This document shows, in pieces, positions 1 to 15,983 of a stretch of 64,000 nucleotides of DNA. Made by a program: the position numbers and the translations under genes. The notes beneath the pieces were generated by a model, which saw only the letters and a list, made by a program, of their open reading frames with translations, was not told where the DNA came from and ran no database searches. Source of the DNA: Jatrophihabitans sp. Its GTDB lineage: Bacteria; Actinomycetota; Actinomycetes; Mycobacteriales; Jatrophihabitantaceae. The stretch is taken from positions 405 to 64,404 of the forward strand of contig DATJNU010000042.1 in the NCBI GenBank assembly GCA_035507775.1, written 5' to 3'. How positions within the stretch are numbered: position 1 is the first letter of the stretch; every line of letters starts with the position of its first letter.

Positions 1-1036
1 GGAAGTCCACCAGGAAGTAGTGCTTGCGCTGGGAGTAGACCAGCGACCGCTCGATGACCTCGGCATACCGGCTGACGTCGTTGTTGCCGCCGGACAGCAG
101 GCAGAGCGTGGTGCTGCCCGGTGCGGTGAAGATGGTGTCGCGCAGCGCCGCGGCGGCCAGCGCCCCGGCGGGCTCGGCGATGATGCCGTCCACCTGATAG
201 AAGTCCAGCATCTCGCAGCACACCCGGCCCTCGCTGGCCGCGACCAGCTCGGCGCCGGCGTCCCGCACGATCGGAAAGGTGACGGCGCCAGCCCGCCGCA
301 CCGCCGCGCCGTCGACGAAGCCGTCCAGCGCCTCCAGGTCGACCGGCCGGCCGGCCTTCAGCGCCGCGGCCATGCTGGCGGCGCCGGCGGGCTCGACGCC
401 CACCACCCGCACCCCGGGATGCCGTTCGGCCAGCCAAGCCAGGGTGCCGGCCAGCAGGCCGCCGCCGCCGACCGGCACCACCACCAGGTCCGGTGCCAGG
501 CCCAGCTGCTCGAACGCCTCGCGGATCACGGTCCCCTGGCCGGCGATGGTGGCCGGGTGGTCGAAGGCCGGCACCAGGGTCGCGCCGGTCCGCTCGGCGT
601 GCTCGCACGCGGCCGCCGCGGAATCGTCGTAGGTGTCGCCGCCGACCGAGATGTGCACCTGCGCCCCGCCCAGCGCGGCGATCCGGTCGAGCTTCTGCCG
701 CGGCGTGGTGCGTGGCAGGTAGATGGTGCCGGGCACTCCGAGCAGGGCGCAGGCATAGGCAACGCCCTGGGCGTGGTTGCCCGCGCTGGCGCACACCAGG
801 CCGGCGGCCCGGCCGGCCGGGGAGAGCTGCGCGATCAGGTTGTACGCGCCGCGCACCTTGTACGAGCGGACCGGTTGCAGGTCCTCGCGCTTGAGCCACA
901 CCTCCCCGCCCATCCGGTCGGACAGGCGCCGGGAGCGCTGGATCGGGGTGGGGTCCAGGACGCTGGACAGCCGGGCGGCGGCGTCGTCGACGTCGGCCGC
1001 CGAGACGGTGGGTGGGTGGGCGTCGGTGGCAGGCAT
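1..1036 (-). CDS. ilvA: threonine ammonia-lyase (biosynthetic threonine dehydratase); 3' end lies beyond the window edge
   Basis: My reverse-strand translation from ATG (comp. 1034-1036) gives MPATDAHPP...WLKREDLQPVRSYKVRGAYN...CASAGNHAQGVAYAC...VPVGGGGLLAG...SRYAEVIERSLVYSQRKHYFLVDF. This includes the PLP-Lys motif and the Gly loop. It is absent from the ORF track because it is open at position 1. The + ORF 20..1177 is its shadow. Confidence 0.9.
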   Translation of the reverse strand, partial: MPATDAHPPTVSAADVDDAAARLSSVLDPTPIQRSRRLSDRMGGEVWLKREDLQPVRSYKVRGAYNLIAQLSPAGRAAGLVCASAGNHAQGVAYACALLGVPGTIYLPRTTPRQKLDRIAALGGAQVHISVGGDTYDDSAAAACEHAERTGATLVPAFDHPATIAGQGTVIREAFEQLGLAPDLVVVPVGGGGLLAGTLAWLAERHPGVRVVGVEPAGAASMAAALKAGRPVDLEALDGFVDGAAVRRAGAVTFPIVRDAGAELVAASEGRVCCEMLDFYQVDGIIAEPAGALAAAALRDTIFTAPGSTTLCLLSGGNNDVSRYAEVIERSLVYSQRKHYFLVDF

Positions 1037-1145
1037 GGCCAGAGCTTTCGTCGGCGTGGTGGTGGGCCTGGGGTCGCGCGGCGCCCGCTGCCGGTCGCCG
1101 CGCTAGCTAATGCGCTGCCATGCCATGTCGAGGTCCTTCCGGCGC

Positions 1146-1744
1146 TCAGGCCGTTACGGCCAGCGTATTCGGCTTGAACGCGGGCAGGGTGCGCTCGTAC
1201 TCGGCGATCTCGTCGGCATGGCGCAGGGTCAGCGTGATGTCGTCGGCCCCCTCCAGCAGCCGCTGGCGGATGCCCTCGTCGAGCTCGAAGCCGACGGCGA
1301 TGCCCCCGGCCCGCACCTCACGCCGCTCCAGGTCCACCGTGATCTCGGTGGCCGGGTCGGCGTCGATCAGCTTCCACAGTTGCTCGATCACGGCCTCGTC
1401 CAGCACGACGGTGAGCAGCCCGTTCTTCAGCGAGTTGCCGCGGAAGATGTCGCCGAACCGGGACGAGAGCACCACCTTGAACCCGTAGTCGCGCAGCGCC
1501 CAGACGGCGTGCTCGCGCGAGGAGCCGGTGCCGAACTCGGTGCCGGCCACCAGCACGGACGCCCCGGCGAACCGCGGATCGTTCAGTACGAAGTCCGGCT
1601 GGGCGCGCCAGCGGTGGAACAGCGCGTCCTCGAAGCCGGTCCGGGTGATCCGCTTGAGGAACTCGGCCGGGATGATCTGATCGGTGTCGACGTTGGACCG
1701 GCGCAGCGGCAGGGCCGTCCCGGTGTGCGTGGTGAAGGGGTCCA

Positions 1745-1745
<1 letters not shown>
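1146..1745 (-). CDS. leuD: 3-isopropylmalate dehydratase small subunit
   Basis: This is the C-terminal 199 aa of track ORF 1146..2504: [43 protein letters not shown]...[18 protein letters not shown]. The ATG (comp. 1743-1745) overlaps the leuC stop (TGATG). Confidence 0.95.
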
Positions 1746-3157
<1,412 letters not shown>

Positions 3158-3591
3158 CGTCCTCATCCCTCGGGTGTCATGTCGCGTCCTGCCGCCCCGC
3201 ATCGTCTCCGGGCCCGGCGGGCCGGAACCCGGTCGCGTCCCGGCGATCCCAGCTCCGCGCCAGCGTCTCATTTTATGAGACATACTGTCTACAGAGCGAT
3301 ACGGCAGCTTCCCTGGAGGTTACCGCACGGGCCGTCCAGGTGCACCGGTTCGGCAGCCACCCGCTCCATCGTCCCGAGTGGGAACGACTGCCGACAGGGC
3401 GGATCGGGCGCTCGGCGCGCGCGGGCGCCATCCGGGCGAGCGGCGCGCATGCGACATGTCTCAACAAGTGGGACGTGATGTGCGAAGTATGGACTTCGGC
3501 ATTCGCGGTCATTACCGTCGATTTCGTTCGGAGGCCGCGCGCATGGCGGCGTCCCCCCGGCCGGTCGAAGATCAGCGGGAGCACCGTGTCT

Positions 3592-4662
3592 ATGGATACC
3601 AAAAGTATGTCTACAGACCTGATAGAAAAAATAGCGCAGGACGACCCCTCCTGCCACGTGATCGCCGAACTGTCATCGTGGTTCACGCGGCCCGCCGACG
3701 AGGTCGACGAGAAACTGGGTCCGGAGCGCGACCGGATCGCCGCCGCCCTGAACGAGATCAACGCCCGCCAGCGCGGCGGCGACCGACAGGCGTTCTACCT
3801 GCAGCAGCTGCTGCTCTCCCGGATCTACCAGCTGCACATGCTGCTGCCCGACCAGCCGAACGCGGAGGGCTCGGCGGTGCTGCACGAGGTCACCCGCAGC
3901 CTCGAGCGGGCCACCCTCGGCGCCGAGAGCGAGCGGACGGACGTCACGGTCCCGGCCTCCGCCGCGCAGTCGCCGGAGGCGTACCTGACGTGGCTCAAGC
4001 AGACCGCGCGCAGTCACCGCGCCTTCAAGCACCCGTACTACACCGACTTCGTCCGCAACCGGGCGACCGCCGCCGACCTGCGCGACTACGCGATCCAGGA
4101 GTCGGTGGTCGACGGCCGCTTCGACGACCTGCTCGCGATGATGCAGGTCGGCACCCGGGGCGCGGCCAAGCTCGAGATCGCCGGCAACTATTGGGACGAG
4201 ATGGGCAACGGCCGGCCGGAGGAGGTGCACACCTTCCTGTTCAACAAGATCCTCCAGACCTTCGAGGTGTCCGAGAGCGAGCTCGAGGGTGACCTCAGCG
4301 CGGAGGCGCTGCTGTCCGGCAACCTCGCGGTGCTGCTGTGCCGCTATCGCAGCCTCTACCCCGAGGCGGTGGGCTTCCTGGGCATGACCGAGTGGTTCGT
4401 GCCCGATCGGTTCGTCGACGTGGTCAAGGCCTGGGAGCGGCTCGGCCTGCCCGAGGTCGGCATCGTCTATCACCGGCTGCACATCACGATCGACGCGACG
4501 CACGCCTCCGGCTGGTTCCACCGGGTGGTGCTGCCGGCGGCCGGTTCGGAGTTCATGCGGCGGGGGATGACCCGGGGCGCGCTGATGCGGCTGAACACCT
4601 CGGCCCGCTACCTCGACGAGCGGCTCGCCGCGGCCGAGGGCCGGCCGGCGCGGGGTGGCTGA
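3592..4662 (+). CDS. heme-oxygenase-like diiron oxidase/oxygenase (HDO; iron-containing redox enzyme family)
   Basis: 356 aa from ATG 3592; track ORF 3121..4662 is over-extended at the N-terminus. The ligand pattern is NYWDEMGNGRPEEVH (E-x9-H), GMTEWF, then RLHITIDATH (H-x3-D-x2-H), whose first His lies 30 residues after the TEW Glu. The first codons are AT-rich with rare ATA/AAA codons. Confidence 0.8.
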   Translation: MDTKSMSTDLIEKIAQDDPSCHVIAELSSWFTRPADEVDEKLGPERDRIAAALNEINARQRGGDRQAFYLQQLLLSRIYQLHMLLPDQPNAEGSAVLHEVTRSLERATLGAESERTDVTVPASAAQSPEAYLTWLKQTARSHRAFKHPYYTDFVRNRATAADLRDYAIQESVVDGRFDDLLAMMQVGTRGAAKLEIAGNYWDEMGNGRPEEVHTFLFNKILQTFEVSESELEGDLSAEALLSGNLAVLLCRYRSLYPEAVGFLGMTEWFVPDRFVDVVKAWERLGLPEVGIVYHRLHITIDATHASGWFHRVVLPAAGSEFMRRGMTRGALMRLNTSARYLDERLAAAEGRPARGG

Positions 4663-4930
4663 CGTGGCCGGCGGGACGGAGCCCGAACTCGTCGAGGCCG
4701 AGCTGCTCGGCCTGGTGCGCGAGGTGAAGAACTGCGAGCCGGCGCCGCTGCTGGCCGGCAACCGGGACCTGGTCGGCAGCCTCGGCCTGGACTCCCTCGA
4801 CGTGATCGAGCTCTGCGTCCGGCTCGATCGGCGCTTCGGCGTCCAGATGGGTGCCCGGGCCGGCGACCTCGACGCCCTCAACGACCTGGACAGCTTGATC
4901 GAGCTGGTCACGGCCAGGCGCATCCGGTGA
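4655..4930 (+). CDS. free-standing acyl/peptidyl carrier protein
   Basis: GTG 4655 overlaps the HDO stop (TGA 4660-4662). The 91-aa product carries the phosphopantetheine-attachment motif LGLDSLDVIEL. Confidence 0.85.
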   Translation: MADVAGGTEPELVEAELLGLVREVKNCEPAPLLAGNRDLVGSLGLDSLDVIELCVRLDRRFGVQMGARAGDLDALNDLDSLIELVTARRIR

Positions 4931-6471
4931 GTGCGGAGCTGCCCGCCCTGCTCCGTGAGATCGCCGCGACCGCCCGCCGGCACCCCGACCGGGAGGCACT
5001 GGTCGCCGACGGCGGCAGCGTCGGCTACGCGGAGCTGGACCGCCGGGTCGACGAGCTGGCCGGCCGGCTGCTGGGCGCCGAGTGCCGGCCGGGTCAGCTG
5101 GTCGGCGTGGTCGGGCACAAGAGCATCGAGGCGGTCGTCGCGATCCTGGCGGTGCTGCGGGCCGGTGCCGGCTACCTCCCGATCGACCCGCGGCTGCCGG
5201 CGGCCCGGGTGGCCGGCATCCTCGCCGATGCCGGCTGCCGGCTGGTGCTCGCCGGGACGGCGCAGGACGAGCAGCTGCTCAGCCGCCGGCCGGCCGGCTG
5301 CCAGGTCCGGCGCCCGGAGCAGCTGCCCGGCCCGCCGGCCCGGTCGCTGCCCGACCGGATCGAACCGGAGCGGATCGCCTACTGCATGTTCACCTCCGGC
5401 AGCACCGGCCGGCCGAAGGGCGTACAGGTCTCGCACCGGGCGATGGCGGCGTTCTTCGCGGCCGTGCACCCGCTGCTGGAGGTGTCGGCCGGCGACCGGT
5501 GCATGAACACCTCGGCGCTGAACTTCGACGTCTCGGTGGTCGATCTCTGGTACCCCCTGAGCCGGGGCGCGACGGTGCTGCTCACCCCGCTGGTGCCGCT
5601 GCCGCCGCTGCTGGTCGACCTGCTCGAACGCGAGGACATCTCCTGCTTCGCGGCCGTGGGCTCGACGCTCGACCTGCTCTGCCGCTACACCGACGGACTG
5701 GCGGGCCGGCGGTTCCCGTCGCTGCGCCGGGTGATGACCGGCGCCGAGGTGCTCAACCCGGCCACGGTGAACGCGTTCCTCTCGGCCGCGCCGGGGGCCC
5801 GGGTGATCAACGGTTTCGGCCCGACCGAGGCCACCTGCCTGGTCACCGCGCACGTCATCGACGTGCCCGAGCCGGAGCGCACCCTGCCGTACCCGATCGG
5901 CCGCCCGCTGGCGGGCGTCACGGTCCGGTTCCTGGCAGCCGACGGTAGCCTGTCCGAGGACGGCCCGGGCGAGATCCTGGTGGCCGGCGCCCAGCTGATG
6001 TCCGGCTACCTGAACGCGCCGGCGGCCACCGCGGCCCAGCTGCGGCCGCACGACGGAATCCCCTTCTACCACACAGGTGATCTCGGATACCGCGGTGCGC
6101 ACGGCCTGATCGAGTTCGCCGGCCGCGGCGACCAGCAGGTCAAGGTGCGCGGCTACCGGGTGAGCCTGGACGAGATCGGCCAGGCATTGGAAGGGCAACC
6201 GGGGGTCCGGCGGGCTTTCGCCGCCAAGGTCGTCGACCATCGCGGGCAGGAAGCGCTCGCGGCGGCGGTCTGTGCCGACGCCGACCCGGCCCCGGACGAG
6301 CGGCAGTGGTTCGCCACGCTCGCCGACCGGCTGGCGGCGGTGCTGCCGCCCTACATGGTGCCCACCCGGTTCCTGCTGCTGGACGAGCTGCCGACCCTGG
6401 CCAGCGGCAAGCCGGATACGGCCGGCATCCGGCGGCGGCTGGCGGAGCAGCCGGTTTCGGTGCGGTCGTGA
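4927..6471 (+). CDS. stand-alone adenylation (AMP-binding) enzyme, NRPS A-domain type
   Basis: GTG 4927 overlaps the carrier-protein stop (GTGA). Core motifs present: MFTSGSTGRPKGV (A3), NFDVSVVD (A4), NGFGPTE (A5), YHTGDLGY (A7), GRGDQQVKVRGYRVSLDEI (A8), LASGKPD (A10). No C, T or TE domain is fused. Confidence 0.9.
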   Translation: MSAELPALLREIAATARRHPDREALVADGGSVGYAELDRRVDELAGRLLGAECRPGQLVGVVGHKSIEAVVAILAVLRAGAGYLPIDPRLPAARVAGILADAGCRLVLAGTAQDEQLLSRRPAGCQVRRPEQLPGPPARSLPDRIEPERIAYCMFTSGSTGRPKGVQVSHRAMAAFFAAVHPLLEVSAGDRCMNTSALNFDVSVVDLWYPLSRGATVLLTPLVPLPPLLVDLLEREDISCFAAVGSTLDLLCRYTDGLAGRRFPSLRRVMTGAEVLNPATVNAFLSAAPGARVINGFGPTEATCLVTAHVIDVPEPERTLPYPIGRPLAGVTVRFLAADGSLSEDGPGEILVAGAQLMSGYLNAPAATAAQLRPHDGIPFYHTGDLGYRGAHGLIEFAGRGDQQVKVRGYRVSLDEIGQALEGQPGVRRAFAAKVVDHRGQEALAAAVCADADPAPDERQWFATLADRLAAVLPPYMVPTRFLLLDELPTLASGKPDTAGIRRRLAEQPVSVRS

Positions 6472-7190
6472 CCGGTACGGTCGCCGGGCGCATCCCGCTC
6501 TTCCTGCTACCACCGGCCGCCGGTTCGGCGGTGAGCTTCGACGGCTGGCCCGACTCGCCGGAGCTGGCCGCGCAGCCGCTCGAACTGCCGGGGCGGCGCT
6601 TCGGCGACCCGGCACCCCTGGAACTCGACCTGGCGGCCGCGGTCGACTGGCTGGACCTGCACCGCCCGGCCGGCGGTGCGGACTGGGCGCTGCTCGGCCA
6701 CAGCATGGGCGGCCTGCTGGCCGCGGCGTGGGCCGAACGCGCGACGGCGGCCGGCCACCCGCCCCGGCTGCTGGTGCTCAGCTCGGTCACGCCGCCGTGG
6801 CCGCGCTCGCAGGCGGTCGAGCTGCTGGCGGCGGGGCCGGACGAGCTCTGGGACCGGATGATCCGGCTCGGCGGCATCCCCGACGAGCTGTCCGGCTCGC
6901 GGACGTTCCGCCGGCTGATCGAGCCCCGGCTGCTGGCCGACGTCCGGCTGGCCGCGTCCTGGCAGCCGGCCGGCCCGCCCCGGCTGGACTGCCCGATCCT
7001 GAGCTGCTCCGGAGCCGACGACGCCTTCGTGCCGCCGGCGGCGATGCTCGGTTGGGCCGCGTGCACCGGGCCGGGCCGGTTCCGGCACCGGGTGTTGCCC
7101 GGCGGTCACTTCTACCGGTCCGGGCTGGTGGACCTGCACCCCCTGCTGACCGATCCCGAACCGGCCGCGGGCCGGCCGGGACCGCGGTGA
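6468..7190 (+). CDS. type II thioesterase (alpha/beta hydrolase)
   Basis: In-frame GTG 6468 overlaps the A-enzyme stop (GTGA). The 240-aa product has GHSMGG, then GADD and GGHFY (a Ser/Asp/His triad pattern). Track ORFs starting at 6272 and 6306 are over-extended or in the wrong frame. Confidence 0.85.
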   Translation: MTGTVAGRIPLFLLPPAAGSAVSFDGWPDSPELAAQPLELPGRRFGDPAPLELDLAAAVDWLDLHRPAGGADWALLGHSMGGLLAAAWAERATAAGHPPRLLVLSSVTPPWPRSQAVELLAAGPDELWDRMIRLGGIPDELSGSRTFRRLIEPRLLADVRLAASWQPAGPPRLDCPILSCSGADDAFVPPAAMLGWAACTGPGRFRHRVLPGGHFYRSGLVDLHPLLTDPEPAAGRPGPR

Positions 7191-7209
7191 CACGAGAGAG
7201 GCTGATGCG

Positions 7210-7854
7210 ATGACGACCCTGGAAACCCCCGCCACCCCGCGCAGCACCGCCGCGCCGACCGTGCTGCTGGCGCCCGGGGTGCTGGACGAGGTGATCGCCG
7301 ACGCCGTGGCCCAGTACCGCACGGCCTGGCAGGTGCGCACCAGCGGCGAGCGGTACCTGCCGCGCTGCTGGGCACTGCTGGTGGGCGACTACGAGGCGAA
7401 CCTGCTGCGAGTGCGTGCCATCCGGTGGGCAGGCAACGTCCGGGAGAGCGACGCGACGGTGCTGGAGGAGTTCTCCGAGGTCATCGTCCCGTGCTTCGGT
7501 TCCGGCTACACCAACGGCCGTCGGGGGTACTGGTGCGACCCGGCCGAGCTGCTGGCGATCACCCGCGAGGTGGAGGACGCCGGCTACGACGTGCTCGGCT
7601 CGGTGCACATGCACGCCGACATGCACCGGTTCTGGCCGGAACACGCCGGCGGCCTGGAGCTGAGCGAGCACCCGACGCCGATGGACGAGTACCTGTTCCG
7701 CAACGGCGGCTGGCCGCTGAACCTAATCCTGCACCTGGAGGCGGTCGGCGACGACATCACGATGCGCTTGGGTGCCTGGTCGCCGCCGGCGTTCGAGGAC
7801 GCCGGCGGGCGGGCGGCCGGCTGCCGGGTGCTTCCCGTCGTCGGGGAGCGCTGA
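7210..7854 (+). CDS. hypothetical protein, tentatively MPN/JAB (JAMM)-like metalloenzyme fold
   Basis: ATG 7210 is preceded by GAGAGAGG. The pattern VLLAPGVLDEVIADAV...CWALLVGDYE...FGSGY...DPAELLAITREVEDAGYDVLGSVHMHADMH...SEHPTPMDEY resembles a JAB domain (H-x-H ... S/T-x2-D). However, about 20 residues separate H-x-H from T-x2-D, versus 7 in the canonical motif. Confidence 0.4.
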   Translation: MTTLETPATPRSTAAPTVLLAPGVLDEVIADAVAQYRTAWQVRTSGERYLPRCWALLVGDYEANLLRVRAIRWAGNVRESDATVLEEFSEVIVPCFGSGYTNGRRGYWCDPAELLAITREVEDAGYDVLGSVHMHADMHRFWPEHAGGLELSEHPTPMDEYLFRNGGWPLNLILHLEAVGDDITMRLGAWSPPAFEDAGGRAAGCRVLPVVGER

Positions 7855-7855
7855 G

Positions 7856-8152
7856 GTGATCACCCGCACCGTGCTGCTCAAGGCACACGATCGCCCGCTG
7901 GTCGAGAAGACCCTGCTCGCGATGGCAGAACTGCCCGCCCGGGTGGACTGCCTCGACTCCGTCACGGTGTCCCGCGACCGCAGCGGCCGGTCGCTCGGCT
8001 ACGACCTGATGATGGTGCTGACCTTTCGTACCGAGGACGACCTGCGGGCCTGGATCGAGCACCCGGAGCACGTGCCGTTCCGGGACGCGCTGCTCGATCG
8101 CGAGGCGGTGGAGCTGCTGGTCTTCGAGTCCGGCCGGGACGGGCTGGCGTAG
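7856..8152 (+). CDS. Dabb (stress-responsive A/B-barrel) family protein
   Basis: GTG 7856 begins 1 nt after the preceding stop, with GGGGAG upstream. The 98-aa product reads VITRTVLLKAHD...MMVLTFRTEDDLRAWIEHPEHVPF. Confidence 0.75.
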   Translation: MITRTVLLKAHDRPLVEKTLLAMAELPARVDCLDSVTVSRDRSGRSLGYDLMMVLTFRTEDDLRAWIEHPEHVPFRDALLDREAVELLVFESGRDGLA

Positions 8153-8394
8153 CGTCCCGGACCTCTGCCGGAATCTCGCTCCGTGGGAATGCGGGCGGGC
8201 TTTTCCGGACTTGCGGGGAGCGCCACGGCGTGCCGGCAACCATCCCGTCGGGTCGGTATTTGCTGGGCTTCGGCATGCTGCACCGCCGAATCTGGTGCGA
8301 ATAGGCCGAGAATCCTTGCTCCGGCACGAAACGCCTGCCTATACTCCGGCGACCACAATTTGATACTAAAATCTCACACAATGGGATTGATCGA

Positions 8395-9624
8395 GTGAGC
8401 GAATTCGCCAACGAGGGCGCGGAACCTCCCCTTACCGGGGTGCGGGTGCTGGAGCTCGGCAACTACATCGCGGCACCGACCACCGGGCGGCTGCTCGGCG
8501 ACTTCGGCGCCGAGGTCGTCAAGATCGAGCGACCGGGGGCCGGGGACGAGCTGCGCCGCTGGCGGCTGGCCGAGGGTGACACCTCGATGCTCTGGCGGAC
8601 GCTGGCCCGCAACAAGCTGTCGGTCACCCTGGACCTGAAGAGCGACGAGGGCCGAGAGATCGCGCTGTCGCTGGTCGAGCAGTGCGACGTGGTGATCGAG
8701 AACATGCGGCCGGGCGCGCTGGAAGGGCTGGGGTTGGGGGTCGAGCAGCTGGCCGAGCGCCGGCCCGACCTGGTGCTGGTGCGGATCAGCGGATACGGCC
8801 AGGACGGGCCGTACCGCAAGCGCGCCGGCTTCGGCGGGGTTGCCGAGGCGCTGGGCGGCCTGCGGCACCTGACCGGCTACCCGGACCGGCCGCCGACCCG
8901 CCTCGGGGTGAGCCTCGGCGACACCGTGGCCGGCATGTACGGCGCGCTGGGCGCGGTGATGGCGCTGCTCGGCCGCCGGCCGGACCGGCCCAGGGTCGAG
9001 GTGGTCGACGTGGCCCTGTACGAGGCGGTGTTCTCCCTGACCGAATCGATGGTTCCGGAGTTCGATGCCTACGGCCTGGTCCGCGAGCGGACCGGGACGA
9101 CGCTGCCCGGGGTGGTGCCGAGCAACACCTACCGCTGTGCGGACGGCAGCTGGGTGGTCATCGGCGGCAACGCCGACGCGGTGTTCCGGCGGCTGATGCA
9201 CGTGATCGAGCGCCCGGACCTCGCCGACGATCCCGAACTGGCCGACAACCGGGGCCGATCCCGGTACCCGGAGCTGCTCGACACGGCGATCGGCAGCTGG
9301 ACCGAGCAGCACCCGCTCGCCGTGGTGCTCGACACCCTGGAGGCGAACGGCGTGCCCAGCGGCGCGATCTACGACGCCGCCGACATCGGCAAGGATCCGC
9401 ACTTCGAGGCACGCGAGATGCTGCTGCCGGTCGAGGTCGAGGTCGCGCCGGGCCGGCACCGCGAGGTGCGCTTCCCCGGCATCGTGCCGAAGCTCAGCCG
9501 GCGGCCCGGCTCGCTGCGCTGGCTGGGCCCGGAACTCGGCGCGCACACCCGCTCGGTGCTCGGCGACCTGCTCGGTCTCGGCGAGGCCGAGCTGGCCGAG
9601 CTGGCTGCCAAGGGGGTGATCTGA
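8395..9624 (+). CDS. family III (CaiB/BaiF) CoA-transferase
   Basis: 409 aa with RVLELGNYIAAPTTGRLLGDFGAEVVKIERPG near the N-terminus and a typical family III pattern throughout. Confidence 0.9.
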   Translation: MSEFANEGAEPPLTGVRVLELGNYIAAPTTGRLLGDFGAEVVKIERPGAGDELRRWRLAEGDTSMLWRTLARNKLSVTLDLKSDEGREIALSLVEQCDVVIENMRPGALEGLGLGVEQLAERRPDLVLVRISGYGQDGPYRKRAGFGGVAEALGGLRHLTGYPDRPPTRLGVSLGDTVAGMYGALGAVMALLGRRPDRPRVEVVDVALYEAVFSLTESMVPEFDAYGLVRERTGTTLPGVVPSNTYRCADGSWVVIGGNADAVFRRLMHVIERPDLADDPELADNRGRSRYPELLDTAIGSWTEQHPLAVVLDTLEANGVPSGAIYDAADIGKDPHFEAREMLLPVEVEVAPGRHREVRFPGIVPKLSRRPGSLRWLGPELGAHTRSVLGDLLGLGEAELAELAAKGVI

Positions 9625-10555
9625 TGCTGCCCGAGCAGGTGCTGATCACCGACGTGACGCTGCGCGACGGCCTGCAGAACGAGCCGGCGGTGCTCACCGT
9701 CGCGCAGAAGGCACGGATCGCCGCCGCGCTGCGCGGGACGGGGGTCCGCTCGATCGAGGCGGGCAGCTTCGTCCGGCCCGATCTGGTGCCGCAGCTGGCC
9801 GGCACCGGCGAGCTGCTCGCCACCCTGCCCCGGGTCGAGGGGATCAGCCTGGTCGCGCTGGCGCCCAACCTGCGCGGCGCCACGGACGCGCTGGCCGCCG
9901 GCGTGGACGAGGTGCGGTTCGTGCTCTCGGCCAGCGAGGGCCACAGCCGTGCGAACACCGGGCGCAGCCGCGCCGAGGGCATCGAACGGGTCGGCGAGGC
10001 GGTGCGCCGGACCCGGCCCGGCGGCCCGGCGTGCGGATCACGGTGGCGGTCGCGACAGCCTTCGTCTGCCCGTTCGACGGCGCCGTGAGCAGCGCCGAGC
10101 TGGTCGACGTGGTGCGCCCGTTCGCCGCCGCGGGGGTGGCCGCGGTCTACCTGGCCGACACCATCGGCCGGGCCGGGCCACGCCAGGTCACCGAGGCGGT
10201 GGCAGCGGTGCGCGCGGCGTTCCCGGAGCTGCCGCTCGGCCTGCACCTGCACGACACGTACGGCCGCGCGCTGGCCAACGCCTGGGCCGGGCTGCTGCAG
10301 GGGGTGGCGCTCTTCGACTCCGCGGTGGGCGGCATCGGCGGCTGCCCGTTCGCCCCCGGGGCGGCCGGGAACGTGGCGACCGAGGACCTGGTCGAGCTGA
10401 TGCACAGCTGCGGGCTGCCTACCGGCATCGACCTGGATCGGGTGGACGAGGCGAACGAGGTGCTGTCGGCCGAACTCGGCCGCCGGCTGGATACGGTGAC
10501 CGGTCGGGCCCGCCGATCGAGCCGGCGAGCGGCGGAGGCGGTGGGCGCGCGATGA
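9624..10555 (+). pseudogene. HMG-CoA lyase-like (HMGL family) gene interrupted by a 1-nt frameshift near 10030
   Basis: ATG 9624 overlaps the upstream stop (TGATG). The N-terminal half (ITDVTLRDGLQNE...EAGSFVRPDLVPQ...SASEGHSRAN) is in frame 0 and runs to a stop at 10088. The C-terminal half (VRITVAVATAFVCPFDG...LHLHDTYGRALANAWAGL...GGIGGCPFAPGAAGNVATEDLV) is in the -1 frame starting at 10031. The switch lies in the G/C run 10012-10031. Confidence 0.75.
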
Positions 10556-11346
10556 CGGCGCCAGCAGTGGAGTTGAGGTCGGTCCGGCGGGACTTCGCGA
10601 CCTCCAGCGGGGACATGTACACCGCCGTGCACGGCATCGATCTGACCATCCCGCACGGCAGGTTCGTCTCGGTGGTGGGCCCGACCGGCTGTGGCAAGTC
10701 CACCGTGCTGAACATGGCCGCCGGGCTGCTGGCGCCCACCGAGGGCGACGTGCTCAGCTTCGGCCAGCCGCTGGCCGGCATCAATGCGCGGGCCGGCTAC
10801 CTCTTCCAGCAGGAGACCCTGCTGCCGTGGAAGAGCATCGTGGACAACGTCAAGCTCGGCCTCACCATGCGCGGCGTCTCCGGCCGGGAGGCCAAGCAGC
10901 AGGCCCGCTCCTGGCTGAAGCGGGTCGGCCTGGCCGGCTTCGAGGACCGCTACCCGCACCAGCTCAGCGGCGGCATGCGCAAGCGCGCCTCGATCGCCCA
11001 GGTCTGGGTGACCGACCCGGACATCCTGCTGATGGACGAGCCGTTCAGCGCGCTGGACGTGCAGACCCGGCAGGTGATGGAGAACGAGCTGCTCCAGCTG
11101 TGGCAGGGCTCGGACAAGTCGGTGCTGTGCATCACCCACGACCTGGACGAGGCGATCGCGCTGTCCGACGAGGTGGTGCTCCTCTCGTCCGGGCCGGGCA
11201 GCTCCATCGTCGGCCGCTACGAGGTGGACCTGCCCCGGCCCCGCGACCTGCTGACCGTTCGCGACGAGCCCGGTTTCGGCCGCATCTACAACGAGATCTG
11301 GTCCCAGCTCCGCCAGGAAGTGATGAAGACCTATGCAGGAGTCTGA
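10552..11346 (+). CDS. ABC transporter ATP-binding protein (NitT/TauT nitrate/sulfonate/bicarbonate type)
   Basis: ATG 10552 overlaps the lyase stop (ATGA). Walker A GPTGCGKST, signature LSGGMRKR, Walker B ILLMDEPFSALD. Confidence 0.9.
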   Translation: MTAPAVELRSVRRDFATSSGDMYTAVHGIDLTIPHGRFVSVVGPTGCGKSTVLNMAAGLLAPTEGDVLSFGQPLAGINARAGYLFQQETLLPWKSIVDNVKLGLTMRGVSGREAKQQARSWLKRVGLAGFEDRYPHQLSGGMRKRASIAQVWVTDPDILLMDEPFSALDVQTRQVMENELLQLWQGSDKSVLCITHDLDEAIALSDEVVLLSSGPGSSIVGRYEVDLPRPRDLLTVRDEPGFGRIYNEIWSQLRQEVMKTYAGV

Positions 11347-12223
11347 GCTGTCCGGCACCCGCGTCGACACGGTCGCGGCCGAGCCCGCCGCGCCGGAGCG
11401 TCCGAGGGTGCAACCGGCCACCGACGCGCGCCGGGCTGCCAGGGCCCGGGTGCGCCGCCGGCGGGGCCTGGTGCTGTCGCTGCAGCTGCTGATCGCGGTG
11501 ATCTTCCTCGGCGGCTGGCAGATCGGTTCGGACACCGGCCGGCTGGACCCGTTCTTCTTCAGCAGGCCCAGCGACGTCGCGGTCCGGTCCTACCACTGGA
11601 TCACGTCCGGCTACATCGTCGACGACCTCGCCGTGACCCTGCAGGAGGCGTTCTACGCCCTGGTGATCGGCTCGCTGGCAGGCGTCGTGGTCGGTTTCGC
11701 GCTGGGCCGGATCCGGTTGCTGGCCGAGGTGTTCGACCCCTACATCAAGATGCTCAACGCGTTGCCCCGGGTCGTCCTGGCGCCGATCTTCCTGCTCTGG
11801 TTCGGCCTGGGCATCTCGTCGAAGGTCGCCTTCGGCATCACCCTGGTGTTCTTCATCGTGTTCTTCTCGACCTTCGAGGGCGTGCGCAACGTCGACCGGG
11901 TGCTGGTCGACAACGCCCGGATGCTGGGTGGCAAGAAACACCATGTGCTGCGGCACGTTCTCATCCCGAGCGCGGCCACCTGGATCTTCTCCAGCCTGCA
12001 CGTGAGCGTCGGCTTCGCCATCGTCGGCGCCGTGGTCGGTGAGTACCTGGGCGCCTCGCAGGGCGTCGGCTACATCATCGCCCAGTCCGAGGGAACGTTC
12101 GACACCACCGGCGTCTTCGCCGGCATGATCATCCTGACCGTCGTCGTGCTGGTGATCGACCTGATCGTCAACCGGATCGAGCGCAGGCTGCTGCGCTGGC
12201 GGCCGGACCAGCAGTTGAACTAA
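11333..12223 (+). CDS. ABC transporter permease (NitT/TauT type)
   Basis: 296 aa with multiple hydrophobic spans and a binding-protein-dependent permease pattern (LNALPRVVLAPIFLLWFG...ARMLGGKKHHVLRHVLIPSA). It overlaps the 3' end of the ATPase gene. Confidence 0.85.
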   Translation: MQESELSGTRVDTVAAEPAAPERPRVQPATDARRAARARVRRRRGLVLSLQLLIAVIFLGGWQIGSDTGRLDPFFFSRPSDVAVRSYHWITSGYIVDDLAVTLQEAFYALVIGSLAGVVVGFALGRIRLLAEVFDPYIKMLNALPRVVLAPIFLLWFGLGISSKVAFGITLVFFIVFFSTFEGVRNVDRVLVDNARMLGGKKHHVLRHVLIPSAATWIFSSLHVSVGFAIVGAVVGEYLGASQGVGYIIAQSEGTFDTTGVFAGMIILTVVVLVIDLIVNRIERRLLRWRPDQQLN

Positions 12224-12288
12224 CCGCCCCGGCTCCGGCCTCGGCACGCGTCATCTCATCCCCGCGCTCTGATTCGGAAGGGATCACC

Positions 12289-13326
12289 ATGAGGGCGAAA
12301 CTCCTGCGACTGCGGGCAGTCGGCATCCTGCTCGCCGGCGCGCTGGTCGTCACCACCGGCTGCTCCAGCCACGGGTCGTCGAGCGGCTCCGGCGGCTCGA
12401 AGAACGTCACCATCGGCGTGGGCGGCCAGAGCCTGCTGGTCTACCTGCCGACCACGCTCGCCCAGCAACTCGGCTACTACAAGGACGAGGGGCTGAACGT
12501 CAAGCTGCAGGACCTGCAGGCGGGCTCGAAGGCGCTGACCGCCTTGCTCGGCGGCAGCGTGGACGTGACCTCGGGCTACTACGACCACACGATCCAGACC
12601 CAGGCCAAGGGCAAGTCGATCGAGTCGTTCGTGACGATGCTGCGGCTGCCGGCGCTGGCCCTGGTGGTCTCGCCGAAGCACAAGGGCACGGTCAATTCGA
12701 TCGCCGACCTGAAGGGCGGCAAGATCGGGGTCACCGCGCCCGGCTCGTCCACCGACTTCTTCCTGAACTTCCTGCTCACGCAGGCGGGCCTGTCCAGCGG
12801 CGACGTCAGCCACCAGGCCGTCGGCGGTGGCAGCACCGCGGTGGCCGCGATGGAGCAGGGCACCGTGGACGCCGCGGTGATGATCGACCCGGCCATCTCC
12901 GAACTGGCCAAGCGGCACCCGGACCTGAAGATCGTGGACGACCTGCGCACCCAGGACGGGGTGCAGAAGGTCTACGGCACCACCCAGTACCCGGCCGCTG
13001 TGCTGTACTCCTCGCCCGACTGGGTGAAGGGCCACCAGGACACCGCCAAGAAGCTCGCCGCCGCCATCGTGAAGACCCTGCAGTGGATCAGCTCGCACAG
13101 CGCCGAGGAGATCGTCGCCAAGATGCCGGCCAGCTTCGTCGGCAGCGACAAGGCGGTCTACACCCAGGCGGTGGCCGCGGCCAAGCCGACGTACTCCACC
13201 GACGGCACGATGGATCCGGCCGGTGCCGCCGAGGTCCTGAAGGTGCTCTCCTCCGATCCGGCCATCGCCAGCGCGAACATCAAGCTGGACACCACCTACA
13301 CCAACGGGCTGTTGCCCTCGTCCTGA
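12289..13326 (+). CDS. ABC substrate-binding lipoprotein (NMT1/SsuA-like)
   Basis: Signal peptide with lipobox VVTTGC. Periplasmic-binding pattern: VTIGVGGQSLLVYLPTTLAQQLGYYKDEGLNVKL...GKIGVTAPGSSTDFFL. Confidence 0.85.
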   Translation: MRAKLLRLRAVGILLAGALVVTTGCSSHGSSSGSGGSKNVTIGVGGQSLLVYLPTTLAQQLGYYKDEGLNVKLQDLQAGSKALTALLGGSVDVTSGYYDHTIQTQAKGKSIESFVTMLRLPALALVVSPKHKGTVNSIADLKGGKIGVTAPGSSTDFFLNFLLTQAGLSSGDVSHQAVGGGSTAVAAMEQGTVDAAVMIDPAISELAKRHPDLKIVDDLRTQDGVQKVYGTTQYPAAVLYSSPDWVKGHQDTAKKLAAAIVKTLQWISSHSAEEIVAKMPASFVGSDKAVYTQAVAAAKPTYSTDGTMDPAGAAEVLKVLSSDPAIASANIKLDTTYTNGLLPSS

Positions 13327-13336
13327 CCGGGCCGTG

Positions 13337-13366
13337 CTGGCCGGCCCGCGATCGCGGGCCGACCAG
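13337..13366. terminator. palindromic hairpin between convergent genes
   Basis: CTGGCCGGCCCGCGA/TCGCGGGCCGACCAG has 15-nt arms with one mismatch and a perfect 18-nt palindrome core (GGCCCGCGATCGCGGGCC). It lies between the binding-protein stop (13326) and the IclR stop (13375). Confidence 0.55.
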
Positions 13367-13374
13367 TACGGCGG

Positions 13375-14070
13375 CTAGAGCGCGTCGGTGAGGGATCGCG
13401 CCGCCCGGACCACCGGCTGGGCGTACTGCCTGCCGGGCTCGCGGGTCATCCGGGAGATCGGGCCGGAGAGGCAGAGCGCCAGCAGCCGGCCGTTCGAGCA
13501 GTGGACCGGGGCGCTGACCGAGGCGACTCCGAGCGCCCGCTGGCCGACGCTCTCGGCCCAGCCCCGCTGGCGCACCCGGCGCAGCAGTACCGGGCCGAAC
13601 GCCTGCTCCGACACGGCCTCCGTTCCCGGATCGGCCGTGAACGCAAGCAGAACCTGGGCCGCGGAACCGGCGCTCATGGTGAGCTCGTTGCCCATCGGCA
13701 CCGTGTCCCGCAGGCCGGCCGCCTGTTCGACGGCGGCGATGCAGACCCGGACGTCGCCGGCCCGCCGGTAGAGCTGGATGCTCTCGCCGGTCGCCTCGTG
13801 CAGCTCCTGCATCACCGGACGTGCCGTGACCAGCAGCGGATCCGTGGCCTGGGCGGCCAGCTCGTGCAGCCAGGTGCCGAGCATCCAGCCGCCCTTGCCG
13901 TCCGGCGCGAGCAGCCCGGCGCCCTGCAGCGCGGTGACCAGCCGGTAGGTGGTGGCCCGGCTGATGCCGGTCCGTTCGGACAGCTCGCGCGGTGTCGCCG
14001 CTCCTGCCTGCACCGCCCTGAGCAGCTGGAACGCCTTGCCCAGCACGCCATAGCCAGATTGTGCTTCCAC
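13375..14070 (-). CDS. IclR family transcriptional regulator
   Basis: 231 aa with an N-terminal wHTH (PRELSERTGISRATTYRLVTALQGAGLL) and a C-terminal IclR effector-domain pattern. It is divergent from the methyltransferase gene. Confidence 0.9.
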   Translation of the reverse strand: MEAQSGYGVLGKAFQLLRAVQAGAATPRELSERTGISRATTYRLVTALQGAGLLAPDGKGGWMLGTWLHELAAQATDPLLVTARPVMQELHEATGESIQLYRRAGDVRVCIAAVEQAAGLRDTVPMGNELTMSAGSAAQVLLAFTADPGTEAVSEQAFGPVLLRRVRQRGWAESVGQRALGVASVSAPVHCSNGRLLALCLSGPISRMTREPGRQYAQPVVRAARSLTDAL

Positions 14071-14253: not shown

Positions 14254-15255
14254 ATGTCCAAGCTCGATTTCGCCACCCGGGGCCAGCCGCGCCGGCACGC
14301 CTTCGAACTCGTGCAGGGCTACATCCTCTGCTCGGTGCTGGCTTCGCTCGACGACGCGGGAGTGCTGGACAAGCTCGAGCAGGACGGCCTGCGGGTCGCG
14401 GACGTCGGCGCCAACGCCCAGCTCTCGCGGGACACCCTGTACTACCTGGTGGATCGCGGGGTGGTCTATCCGGACGGCGACACCTACCGGCTGACCGGCT
14501 ACGGCACGGAACTCTTCCACGACCGTGGCTACATCTTCTGGATCGCCGGCGGCTTCGGTTTCCCCTTCCTGCGCTTCGGTGATCTGGTCGCCGGCACGCA
14601 CCACTACGGCACCGACATCACCCGGGACGGCCGGATCGTGGCGGTCTCGTCGGCCAACCTCGGTCTCGACGACGTCAAGCCCTACATCCACCGGATCCTC
14701 GAGGAACTCGACTACACCAAGGTGGCCGACCTCGGCTGCGGCAACGCCCGCAACCTGATCGGCATCGCGAACGCGAAGGGCGCGGCCGGCATCGGGGTCG
14801 ACATCGACGCCGACGCGATCGCCGAGGCGAACAAGGAGATCGACAACGAGGGCCTGACCGGCAAGGTCAAGGCGGTGCTCGCCGACGCCTCCGACCCGAA
14901 CGCGATCCCCGAGCTGGAGACGGTGGACCTGCTGGTCGGCTTCTTCTTCATGCACGAGGTGCTCGGCAAGGGCCTGGAGTACTTCATCGAGTTCGTCCGC
15001 GGCCTGTCCCGCCGGATGCCCGCCGGGGCCCACATCCTCGCGGTCGAGGTGCAGCCGCCGACCCGGGACCGGGCCGCGCCGGAGACCTTCACGCCCGAGT
15101 TCACGCTGATCCACGCGCTGATGGGGCAGGGCCTGCTCGACGAGGACGGCTGGCGCGACGCCTTCGACCAGGGCGGCTTCGACGTCGTCAAGTCCGAGCA
15201 CCCGAACATCCCCGGCGGCGTGATCATGCTGGCCCGCAACCGCGGCGACCAGTAG
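14254..15255 (+). CDS. class I SAM-dependent methyltransferase with N-terminal winged-helix/dimerisation-like domain
   Basis: ATG 14254 is preceded by AAGGGAAG. SAM motif I is VADLGCGNARNL. The track ORF is over-extended to 14161. Confidence 0.8.
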   Translation: MSKLDFATRGQPRRHAFELVQGYILCSVLASLDDAGVLDKLEQDGLRVADVGANAQLSRDTLYYLVDRGVVYPDGDTYRLTGYGTELFHDRGYIFWIAGGFGFPFLRFGDLVAGTHHYGTDITRDGRIVAVSSANLGLDDVKPYIHRILEELDYTKVADLGCGNARNLIGIANAKGAAGIGVDIDADAIAEANKEIDNEGLTGKVKAVLADASDPNAIPELETVDLLVGFFFMHEVLGKGLEYFIEFVRGLSRRMPAGAHILAVEVQPPTRDRAAPETFTPEFTLIHALMGQGLLDEDGWRDAFDQGGFDVVKSEHPNIPGGVIMLARNRGDQ

Positions 15256-15289
15256 CACCGCCGCCGCCCGATCCAGCCGAGGAGCAACG

Positions 15290-15601
15290 GTGTACCTGGT
15301 CTTCGTGAACTACATCGTGCCGGAGGAGGAGGTCACTCCGGTGCGCGCGCAGCACTTCGAGTTCATCGACCGGCATTTCGCGGCGAACGAGTTCGTGCTC
15401 GGCGGCCGGCGGTCACCCGGTGACGGCGGCTTCATCCTGGTGCGCGATCTCGGGCGCGAGAAGGTCGAGCAGATCATCGCCGAGGACCCGTACCTGGCCG
15501 CCGGCGTGGCGGTGCACGAGCTCATCGACCTGCACCCGGCCCGGGTGCAGCCGGCCATCGCGGACTTCCTCGGCCTGGAGCGGCTGGTGGGTCAGCGGTA
15601 G
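15290..15601 (+). CDS. YciI family protein
   Basis: 103 aa: MYLVFVNYIVPEEEV...RHFAANEFVLGGRRSP.DGGFILV...AEDPY, matching the YCII-like pattern. GGAGCAA lies upstream of the GTG start. Confidence 0.7.
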   Translation: MYLVFVNYIVPEEEVTPVRAQHFEFIDRHFAANEFVLGGRRSPGDGGFILVRDLGREKVEQIIAEDPYLAAGVAVHELIDLHPARVQPAIADFLGLERLVGQR

Positions 15602-15689
15602 GCGGGGCGCCGGGTCCATCGGGGGGGAGCCGGCGGCGTCGGCCGGGGGATCGGGGTCGTCCGGCCGGCGCCGCTGTCGATGGGCGCGG

Positions 15690-15983
15690 TCAGCTCTCCT
15701 CCGGGCGATAGCCGTACTCGACCAGCTGGGGCTTCATCGCCTCCTTGGCCGCCTCGTGCTGGCCGCAGTCGCAGATGCCGTCGAAGCCGCCGGCCCGCCG
15801 CTCGCTGACCAGCAACCCGCCGCCGCCCCAGTTGTCGACCGCCACCTCGTCGATCAGGACGTAGATCCGCTCCGGGTGCTTGTTCATGACGTCGTGCAGC
15901 AGGTCCGTCACGCCCTGGACGAGCTGCCGCTTCTGCTCGCGGGTGACGTTCTCGTCGGTGAGTTCGATCCTCACGATGGGCAC
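15690..15983 (-). CDS. 4-oxalocrotonate tautomerase family protein with C-terminal extension
   Basis: The N-terminus MPIVRIELTDENVTREQKRQLVQGVTDLLHDVM has the catalytic Pro1 context. At 97 aa it carries about 35 extra C-terminal residues, including GICDCGQHE. Confidence 0.7.
   Translation of the reverse strand: MPIVRIELTDENVTREQKRQLVQGVTDLLHDVMNKHPERIYVLIDEVAVDNWGGGGLLVSERRAGGFDGICDCGQHEAAKEAMKPQLVEYGYRPEES

Follow-up and report, generated by a model that had tools for sequence, protein, structure and literature searches.

What chemistry is carried out by an operon that joins a heme-oxygenase-like diiron N-oxygenase (HDO) to a free carrier protein, a stand-alone adenylation enzyme, and a thioesterase, and does the oxygenase act on a free amino acid or on one tethered to the carrier? 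This question is raised by positions 3592-8152 of a 64,000-nucleotide stretch of Jatrophihabitans sp. (contig DATJNU010000042.1, assembly GCA_035507775.1), hereafter the window. A sequence-only reading had presented the six genes found there as an orphan tailoring cassette, wedged next to leuCD and ilvA, in which the HDO would oxidize a carrier-tethered amino acid. The observation itself is confirmed in full, and the interpretation is partly supported. From sequence comparison, we conclude that the HDO is a HrmI/BelK-type lysine N-oxygenase, predicted to convert L-lysine to 6-nitronorleucine, and that the six genes are one operon inside a larger conserved biosynthetic cluster (approximately positions 1-16000 of the window). 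This cluster is an uncharacterized variant built on the known HrmI/BelK first step, with an unusual accessory set and a striking paralog of LeuC (LeuC*). The six genes of the operon are:

3592..4662, plus strand: HrmI/BelK-type HDO (PF14518, HrmI match, residue conservation)
4655..4930 (or start at 4664), plus strand: free-standing peptidyl or acyl carrier protein (PCP/ACP; PF00550, 33 bits; serine in GLDSLD)
4927..6471, plus strand: stand-alone amino-acid adenylation (A) enzyme (PF00501, 267 bits; TIGR01733, 350 bits, cut-off 317)
6468..7190, plus strand: type II thioesterase (TE; PF00975, 81 bits; GHSMGG and C-terminal GGHF motifs)
7210..7854, plus strand: JAMM/MPN-fold protein of a rare family (AlphaFold model and Foldseek)
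7856..8152, plus strand: dimeric alpha+beta barrel (Dabb) protein (PF07876, 43 bits)

These six same-strand ORFs are coupled by the junctions previously described. The PCP gene starts at a GTG (4655) 8 nt inside the HDO gene, overlapping the HDO stop codon (TGA, 4660-4662), and the alternative start adopted in the public gene call (GTG, 4664) would leave a 1-nt gap after the HDO. GTGA overlaps link the PCP and A genes (4927-4930) and the A and TE genes (6468-6471), while a 19-nt spacer with a GAGAGAGG run lies upstream of the ATG at 7210 and a 1-nt gap upstream of the GTG at 7856. The window DNA is high-GC actinobacterial, GC content at third codon positions (GC3) of the six ORFs is 0.83-0.93, which favors coding, and an independent public gene call yields the same six genes. 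Profile searches, together with AlphaFold and Foldseek for the JAMM-fold protein, upheld all six domain assignments of the sequence-only reading, its MPN/JAB guess included. As that reading had also stated, domain searches revealed no condensation, ketosynthase, or reductase domain in the operon or its neighbor genes. Among the cluster proteins, equivalog-level family models were met only by LeuC, LeuD, and IlvA.

The placement of the HDO carries most of the argument. The protein matched PF14518 (Haem_oxygenas_2) at 129.1 bits (cut-off 28.9) over 175 of 177 profile positions, so that its assignment to the HDO family held under profile search, and its sole strong match among solved structures was HrmI (9n1a, E 7e-68, residues 90-345). 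The ligand motifs WDEMGNG...EVHT, TEW, and HxxHITIDATH are present, and E203, H213, E267, H297, D301, and H304 align with BelK E205, H215, E269, H299, D303, and H306; the three-histidine/three-carboxylate metal ligand set is complete, with all six iron ligands kept. Y293 aligns with the essential tyrosine of BelK, Y295. Relatives of the HDO were gathered from 80 genomic loci, and a PF10014 oxygenase of the HrmJ/BelL type (2-oxoglutarate-dependent, 2OG) was encoded beside the HDO in 50 of the loci fetched. When family-conserved columns were defined as those at least 92% conserved among 51 2OG-partnered sequences, HrmI included (n = 77), the window HDO kept 72 of the 77, every polar or charged one among them, and departed from the remainder at P125A, L269F, N311R, I326M, and A327T. 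In a neighbor-joining tree, the subgroup of the window HDO was nested within, and bracketed by, 2OG-partnered HrmI/BelK-type enzymes. The window HDO is 39-46% identical to those encoded in 2OG-partnered loci from the HrmI and belactosin clades.

HrmI and BelK act on free L-lysine, turning its epsilon-amine into a nitro group so that 6-nitronorleucine is formed (PMC11611017), and in the HrmI structure the substrate alpha-amine and carboxylate are anchored electrostatically as N-zeta nears Fe1 (PMC13108848). The window HDO probably acts first on free lysine rather than on a tethered substrate, because of its kinship to HrmI/BelK, its intact conserved residues, an adenylation code that is not lysine-like, and a closely related locus with neither PCP, A enzyme, nor TE (both described below). 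This evidence, which is indirect, does not support the appealing idea of an HDO working on a carrier-tethered amino acid, as first proposed. The statement that no such HDO was known agrees with a 2026 HDO review, which names no member with a carrier-tethered substrate. Our literature searches likewise found no HDO acting on carrier-bound substrates (the enzyme of a Nature 2026 diazo paper is ferritin-like, and NngH is a candidate only). Nor did they find any fate of 6-nitronorleucine other than the cyclopropane pathway, which was covered along with reviews.

Other HDO contexts were seen during this survey. Many HDOs at 60-63% identity had no recognizable PF10014 partner in their locus (L009, L013, L014, L017-L019, L021-L023, L026-L029, L032, L033, and L043; Streptomyces lavendulae-type). 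In the inspected S. lavendulae-type locus (L085), the HDO gene is followed by one for a 231-aa protein without a Pfam match, surrounded by genes for a pyridoxal-phosphate decarboxylase, a SnoaL protein, a flavoprotein, and an acetyltransferase. At 2910-4796 of L088 (Streptomyces sp. NPDC050528), a gene for a second, very divergent PF14518 HDO precedes those for a zf-CDGSH protein and a small methyltransferase, at a distance of some 8 kb from the cluster related to that of the window.

Loci were compared by tblastn of the window proteins against all loci and by neighborhood look-ups seeded with the JAMM-like and LeuC proteins. In one set of relatives (family 1), spread over at least five genera, the recurring operon was HDO-PCP-A-ACAD-ACAD-TE-JAMM-Dabb, where ACAD stands for an acyl-CoA dehydrogenase-like gene. 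The full operon was found in Streptosporangium jomthongense (L020), Streptacidiphilus sp. 4-A2 (L040), Streptomyces sp. NPDC055400 (L086), Streptomyces sp. NPDC050528 (L088), and a 5.4-Mb metagenomic contig (L089). The closest relative of the window HDO (75% identity) is encoded in an Actinomycetota metagenome-assembled genome (MAG; L005), in which flanking genes are 71-89% identical to those of the window and the HDO gene is directly followed by JAMM and Dabb genes, with no PCP, A, ACAD, or TE gene. HDO-PCP-A-TE recurs in other genera; relatives add the ACAD pair, and L005 lacks PCP-A-TE. The HDO-JAMM-Dabb arrangement of L005 also argues that the HDO is not carrier-dependent. A methyltransferase, a YCII-domain protein, a 4-oxalocrotonate tautomerase (4-OT), and leuC* travel with the operon, so "orphan" no longer describes the cassette, which is part of a larger conserved cluster including these three genes at 14.2-16.0 kb and LeuC*. 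Our literature searches turned up no description of an HDO-PCP-A-(ACAD x2)-TE-JAMM-Dabb architecture.

A second family (L008, L038, and L042, with L041 partial) has HDO-PCP-A-ACAD-ACAD-TE with nearly the same A-enzyme code, and adds an EamA transporter and a different methyltransferase of 250-265 aa. L038 also encodes a P450 and a 341-aa protein without a Pfam match, and this family has no JAMM, Dabb, or LeuC*.

The carrier module is intact in its parts, with core motifs A3, A5, A7, A8, and A10 all present in the A enzyme. Motif alignment gave the ten-residue specificity code DVVAMGGCLK, with Asp235 and Lys517 present and no acidic pocket residue. This code is identical in five of six loci (window, L020, L038, L040, and L042) and reads DVIAMGGCVK in L008. 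Lysine- and ornithine-activating domains use acidic pocket residues in their published codes, and the window code does not look lysine-like because it has no acidic residue. In relatives, two ACAD genes lie between the A and TE genes, the TE gene coming after them, and they come as a pair in the second family (L008, L038, and L042) and in the other family-1 loci with a carrier block. Both are cleanly absent from the window, since the A stop overlaps the TE start. The L088 ACADs are divergent and retrieved only generic acyl-CoA dehydrogenases in sequence searches of the PDB, which gave no specific tie to nitroalkane oxidase or to prolyl-carrier oxidases. Prolyl-carrier oxidases are ACAD-like enzymes that act on a carrier-bound substrate. 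In azaserine biosynthesis, ACAD-like dehydrogenases also act on carrier-bound substrates (PMC13274452). By analogy, the ACADs of the relatives most likely oxidize a tethered aminoacyl thioester. The absence of ACADs from the window and of the whole PCP-A-ACAD-ACAD-TE block from L005 suggests that the carrier module is accessory to an HDO-JAMM-Dabb core.

Divergent from the operon, the window encodes three proteins related to branched-chain amino acid metabolism:

1745..3157, minus strand: LeuC*, variant isopropylmalate isomerase large-subunit paralog (TIGR00170, 715 bits, cut-off 560)
1155..1745, minus strand: LeuD, isopropylmalate isomerase small subunit (TIGR00171, 199 bits, cut-off 116; GSSRE motif)
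1..1036, minus strand: IlvA-type threonine ammonia-lyase, cut by the window start (PALP and Thr_dehydrat_C; 422 aa on the public contig)

LeuC paralogs cannot be separated by overall identity, LeuC* being 77-82% identical to ordinary actinobacterial LeuC, no lower than ordinary copies are among themselves, and were instead separated by motif-level comparison. Exactly three columns discriminate cluster-linked from ordinary LeuC, namely L31M, H108F, and H133L: the M/F/L combination is found in 9 of 9 cluster-linked sequences and L/H/H in all 110 other close actinobacterial LeuC, with motifs GIVF and STLGAFG in the former and GIV/VH and STHGAFG in the latter. The nine LeuC* are those of the window, L005, L020, and L040, and proteins P0162, P0167 (L089), P0170, P0173 (L090), and P0195 (L088). 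Eight lie demonstrably beside methyltransferase/YCII/tautomerase or HDO genes, and the linkage of P0170 is drawn only from the match between its 567,625-bp contig and that of the JAMM homologue P0123. In the alignment, F108 takes the place of the "CHQ" motif histidine of archaeal (Methanocaldococcus jannaschii) homoaconitase/isopropylmalate isomerase structures, and would correspond to pig aconitase His147, which belongs to an active-site His-carboxylate pair. L133 is found three residues beyond the DSH triad, which is conserved and aligns with aconitase D165-S166-H167. The Fe-S cysteines (GSCTNGR, GCSMCLG) and the arginine-rich substrate motif SNRNFEGR are kept.

LeuC* is divergent from the operon in the window, L005, and L020, and downstream in L040. 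LeuD adjoins it in these four loci and in L090, and is not beside it in L088 and L089, whose genomes presumably carry an ordinary leuCD pair elsewhere. Because the signature is fixed in cluster-linked copies, the linkage is kept, and L088 and L089 lack an adjacent leuD, the leuC beside the operon is to be read as a cluster-specific paralog and not as the bystander next to which the cassette had been thought merely wedged. It may be either a resistant copy of the target of the cluster product or a repurposed hydro-lyase. The IlvA is 79% identical to its L005 orthologue, for which the IlvA equivalog model gives 569 bits (cut-off 421), and ilvA is absent from L020, L040, L088, and L089, being cluster-linked in the window and L005 only.

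Two further points concern LeuC. The L005 LeuC* (8241-9575) has the "TGSSLDLI" insertion of ordinary Jatrophihabitans-like LeuC (P0159, P0160, and P0166), which the window LeuC* does not have, both copies bearing the F/L signature, a pattern suggestive of a complex origin or of gene conversion among paralogs. We considered, and rejected, a part for LeuCD in homologation of the kind seen in homo-amino-acid pathways: no family-1 locus has a LeuA- or LeuB-like gene, and the HMG-CoA-lyase-like gene of the window is of the HMG-CoA-lyase type and occurs in this lineage only.

The JAMM-fold protein had no Pfam match, JAB models included. An AlphaFold model built from an alignment of 21 homologues (pLDDT 87) matched Rpn11, BRCC36, CSN5/6, and archaeal JAMM1 in Foldseek (probability 1.00, E 4e-7; TM-scores of 0.5-0.76, normalized to the target), and the top 50 PDB matches were all MPN/JAMM, so that the MPN/JAB call was right at the level of the fold. 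E87, H133, H135, D137, and D159 are invariant and S152 nearly so. These are shared with the JAMM/MPN+ metalloproteases Rpn11, BRCC36, and JAMM1 as an upstream invariant Glu and an H-x-H followed by Ser and Asp, but the spacing (E87...H133-M-H135-A-D137...S152...D159) is not that of the canonical E...HxHx(7)Sx(2)D. Bacterial Mec+ and QbsD are also JAMM/MPN+ metalloproteases. Similarity to a desampylase model was weak (E 0.0096, 15.8 bits, cut-off 130), HMMER gave no connection to mainstream JAB families, and PDB sequence searches returned only noise. The family is small, with 35 clusters at 90% identity among 5.8 billion proteins and, in a profile search of 1.84 billion representatives, 56 matches, 24 of them below 1e-30. 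Gene content of the window, L088, and L089 includes no ubiquitin-like or ThiS/MoaD-like partner gene in the cluster. The Dabb protein shows weak similarity to olivetolic acid cyclase and At3g17210-type plant Dabb proteins, and its gene comes after the JAMM gene in L005, L020, L086, L088, and L089.

A distant member of the JAMM-fold family (48% identity) is encoded at 10001-10699 of L087 in an unrelated cluster, with genes for an Asn synthase, a P450, a DUF6875 protein, an SDR, a BBE oxidase, a Trp halogenase, a flavin reductase, and an aminotransferase as neighbors. No HDO is encoded in this cluster, and membership of the family is therefore not confined to nitro-lysine chemistry.

Further genes accompany the operon at a distance:

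14254..15255 (ORF could start at 14161), plus strand: MppJ/MrsA-like S-adenosylmethionine-dependent methyltransferase, 331 aa (similarity to MppJ)
15290..15601, plus strand: YCII-domain protein (PF03795; after the methyltransferase in L005, L020, L088, L089, and L090)
15753..15983, minus strand: 4-OT family protein (PF01361; TIGR00013, 69 bits, cut-off 57)
13375..14070, minus strand: IclR-family regulator (an IclR gene is also directly upstream of the HDO in L086 and L088)

The methyltransferase aligned end to end with MppJ, a phenylpyruvate beta-C-methyltransferase (E 9e-22), and over nearly its full length with 2-ketoarginine methyltransferase (E 6e-16). Its score against TIGR04543 (107 bits, below the cut-off of 425) indicates a relative, not an equivalog; the protein is a candidate alpha-keto-acid beta-C-methyltransferase. 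Copies 65-89% identical occur in L005, L020, L040, L088, L089, and L090, and 4-OT copies 58-64% identical in L020, L086, L088, L089, and L090. The window IclR regulator is 39% identical to those of L086 and L088. RidA imine deaminases are encoded in L086, L088, and L090, and an IclR regulator and MFS exporters in several loci. The keto-acid-type methyltransferase, the tautomerase, and RidA together point to a 2-oxo or 2-imino acid as a probable intermediate.

We propose a pathway in which lysine becomes a nitro amino acid that is handled on a carrier and tailored further, with LeuC* as a component of the cluster, a picture that we consider on balance probable. What the comparison itself establishes is gene content and its conservation, family placement, residue patterns, and the LeuC* signature; each chemical step is a prediction. 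From its close homology to HrmI/BelK, the HDO would start from free L-lysine and oxidize its epsilon-amine to the nitro level, which yields 6-nitronorleucine. The next step may be adenylation of this neutral amino acid, or of a compound closely derived from it, by the A enzyme, which would load it onto the free PCP. In the relatives, the ACAD pair would, by analogy, oxidize the tethered aminoacyl thioester at C-alpha to an imine or 2-oxo-acyl species, and the type II TE would release a 2-oxo or 2-imino nitro acid. The released 2-oxo or amino nitro acid would be tailored by the methyltransferase, 4-OT, JAMM-fold, Dabb, and YCII proteins and exported, the JAMM-fold metalloenzyme and Dabb being candidates for a hydrolase or carbanion/cyclase role. 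LeuC* would be a dedicated component, either a resistant target copy or a repurposed hydro-lyase. In the window itself, which has no ACADs, the tethered intermediate could be a substrate of JAMM or Dabb; alternatively, the carrier module could be in the course of being lost, as in L005.

A more specific version of this pathway, which is speculative and which we hold to be unlikely as it stands, has as its product a lysine-derived aliphatic nitro (nitronate) compound that would act as an antimetabolite by resembling the carbanion intermediate in isopropylmalate isomerase. Here, 6-nitronorleucine would pass to 2-oxo- or 2-imino-6-nitrohexanoate, possibly C3-methylated by the MppJ-like enzyme, and an intramolecular nitro-aldol or nitro-Mannich closure catalyzed by the JAMM-fold protein and/or Dabb would yield a 1-hydroxy- or 1-amino-2-nitrocyclopentane-1-carboxylate-type product. 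LeuC* (H108F, H133L) would then be the resistant target subunit of the producer. 1-Amino-2-nitrocyclopentanecarboxylic acid is a lysine-derived metabolite of Aspergillus wentii, 1-hydroxy-2-nitrocyclopentane-1-carboxylate is a potent herbicidal isopropylmalate isomerase inhibitor, and nitro analogues are classical carbanion or transition-state mimics for aconitase-family enzymes. Among the aconitase matches in the PDB, 1NIS and 1NIT are presumably nitro-analogue complexes. A near-normal target with few active-site changes is the typical look of a self-resistance copy, and LeuC* resembles such copies in being near-normal, with three fixed changes in conserved active-site motifs, and the first enzyme of the cluster is predicted to form a nitro group; replacing a histidine conserved across the superfamily by Phe could instead mean a new substrate. 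Literature searches on nitrocyclopentane natural products, isomerase inhibitors, and LeuC self-resistance returned nothing relevant.

Several points weigh against the proposed pathway. To our knowledge, DVVAMGGCLK matches no known code, and the A substrate is assigned only from the missing acidic residue and from context. Without ACADs, the A-PCP-TE set of the window would only load and hydrolyze, unless JAMM, Dabb, or the HDO acts on a tethered intermediate. For the HDO, retention of the HrmI lysine-anchoring residues is read from overall conservation, and the subgroup-specific L269F, beside iron ligand E267, is shared by the window, L005, L020, L040, and L008. This substitution and the missing ACADs, which leave the window with no other obvious oxidoreductase for a tethered substrate, give room to the idea that the A enzyme loads lysine or another amino acid onto the PCP, the HDO oxidizes it there, and the TE releases it. 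The HDO, PCP, and A genes adjoin and are coupled, and their order does not vary among the loci that have them, a tight arrangement expected if HDO and PCP interact, and the ferritin-like diiron N-oxygenases PvfB and HamC act on carrier-bound amino acids (PMC11611017). However, the window HDO retains every polar residue that is conserved among the free-lysine HrmI/BelK enzymes, HrmI anchors the very carboxylate that would be a thioester in a tethered substrate, and the HDO lineage is nested among partners of HrmJ-type oxygenases, which use the free nitro amino acid. An acidic residue that could hold the side chain of lysine is missing from the A pocket, and L005 keeps a 75%-identical HDO with no carrier to serve it. 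We regard oxidation on the carrier as quite unlikely.

The missing ACADs, which are present in all five other family-1 loci with the operon, also leave room for PCP-A-TE being a decaying remnant in the window, only the HDO-JAMM-Dabb set and the methyltransferase, YCII, 4-OT, and LeuC* proteins still functioning. The sister locus L005 without the whole carrier block and a frameshifted HMG-CoA-lyase-like gene nearby in the window fit such decay. Against this, the PCP, A, and TE ORFs are intact, with their start/stop overlaps and catalytic motifs (A3 to A10 as listed above, the carrier serine, and GHSMGG) all kept, the specificity code is unchanged relative to relatives, GC3 is typical for coding, and the ACAD loss left a clean junction with translational coupling, so that decay appears unlikely. 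It is less probable still that leuC, leuD, and ilvA are housekeeping genes beside an unrelated cassette. All three proteins pass NCBIfam equivalog cut-offs, LeuC* is no more divergent overall than ordinary copies, and linkage of ilvA is confined to the window and L005; the leuC part of this explanation is nevertheless effectively excluded by the occurrence of L31M, H108F, and H133L in 9/9 cluster-linked copies from at least five genera and 0/110 others. The linkage also survives rearrangement between divergent and downstream placement, LeuC* occurs without leuD in L088 and L089, and an ordinary H/H LeuC, 81% identical to LeuC*, is encoded in a Jatrophihabitans MAG (P0159).

With lysine nitration as the preferred first step, the nearest known systems are the HrmI/HrmJ pathway of hormaomycin and the BelK/BelL/BelM/BelN pathway of belactosin. 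These share the first enzyme, iron ligands, and conserved polar residues with the window HDO and lead from lysine through 6-nitronorleucine to nitro- or aminocyclopropylalanine. Unlike them, the window and family-1 loci have no PF10014 cyclopropanase, diaminopimelate (DAP)-epimerase-like gene, or molybdenum reductase (searches of the window and of all family-1 and family-2 loci gave no HrmJ-like PF10014 sequence), and family 1 instead has PCP-A-(ACAD x2)-TE and the JAMM-fold and Dabb proteins. Belactosin-type clusters resemble the window in having leuCD-like genes and a methyltransferase, but their LeuC is H/H and accompanied by an isopropylmalate synthase homologue and an AMP-ligase, whereas the window has the F/L LeuC* and no synthase.

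Belactosin-like loci were also recovered in the survey (L065, L070, L072-L076, and L080). Their content comprises an isopropylmalate synthase homologue, LeuCD (H/H), an AMP-ligase, a methyltransferase, a BelK-like HDO, a PF10014 oxygenase, a DAP-epimerase-like gene, a molybdopterin oxidoreductase, and an M24 peptidase.

The carrier module recalls other systems. NikP1/NikQ/NikP2 and NovH/NovI are A, PCP, oxidase, and TE sets, and PltF/PltL/PltE and AnaC/AnaD/AnaB/AnaA carry out prolyl-carrier oxidation. Like these, the window combines a stand-alone A enzyme with a free carrier and a type II TE and lacks a condensation domain, and its relatives resemble the pyrrole and anatoxin systems in having ACAD-like oxidases between A and TE. 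Unlike these sets, the only oxidase of the window operon is an HDO of a free-lysine family, with no P450, and the ACADs are paired in relatives and absent in the window. The azaserine pathway has analogous carrier steps (AzsP ligase, AzsQ ACP, AzsT acyl-ACP dehydrogenase, AzsF dehydrogenase, and AzsB thioesterase), and the N-nitroglycine cluster encodes an HDO, NngH (PMC13274452). The resemblance to azaserine lies in a ligase, a carrier, two dehydrogenases, and a TE around a small, nitrogen-oxidized, lysine-dependent building block. In contrast to both azaserine and N-nitroglycine, the cluster has neither a cupin/methionyl-tRNA-synthetase-type ligase nor a flavin lysine N-hydroxylase (the hydrazine-forming enzymes), its A enzyme has the Asp235 of the alpha-amino-acid type, and its HDO is HrmI-type rather than NngH-type. 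As with PvfB and HamC, a diiron N-oxygenase is encoded beside an A-carrier module; those ferritin-like enzymes (PF11583) oxidize a tethered amino acid (PMC11611017), whereas the window HDO is heme-oxygenase-like (PF14518) and the evidence favors a free substrate.

Until now, HrmI/BelK chemistry has been known only as an entry to nitro- and aminocyclopropylalanine. Here, the same first enzyme stands before a different downstream set, which indicates a second, unexplored fate of an aliphatic nitro amino acid. The replacement of two highly conserved histidines in a paralog tied to the cluster makes LeuC* a handle for target-directed genome mining, and hints either at a naturally occurring inhibitor of leucine biosynthesis, which is a target for herbicides and antimicrobials, or at an aconitase-family enzyme repurposed for a nitro substrate.

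The remaining features of the region lie between the leuC* and HDO genes and between the operon and the IclR gene:

3158..3591, no strand: divergent intergenic region between leuC* and the HDO operon (read from the sequence; same divergent layout in L005 and L020)
8395..13326, plus strand: lineage-specific block (window and L005 only; absent from L020, L040, L086, L088, and L089), comprising
8395-9624, plus strand: family III CoA-transferase
9624-10555, plus strand: HMG-CoA-lyase-like gene, frameshifted
10552-11346, plus strand: ABC ATPase
11333-12223, plus strand: permease
12289-13326, plus strand: SsuA-like binding protein

Scans of a region including 3158..3591 gave no match to Rfam families or to the sigma-70 consensus, and promoter and terminator scans of this region gave nothing useful. 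A terminator-like hairpin with a T-run was seen on the minus strand at 3636-3654, just inside the 5' end of the HDO gene, as one of two terminator-like sites that the scan returned, where chance alone would give about 1.2. Because the 8.4-13.3 kb block and ilvA occur only in the window and L005, we treat them as probable lineage-specific additions to the cluster. Within this block, the HMG-CoA-lyase-like gene has a frameshift near 10043-10088 and is called as 154-aa and 170-aa products. Its L005 orthologue is intact (308 aa) and passes the HMG-CoA lyase subfamily model, and the split gene of the window is either a pseudogene or a MAG assembly error.

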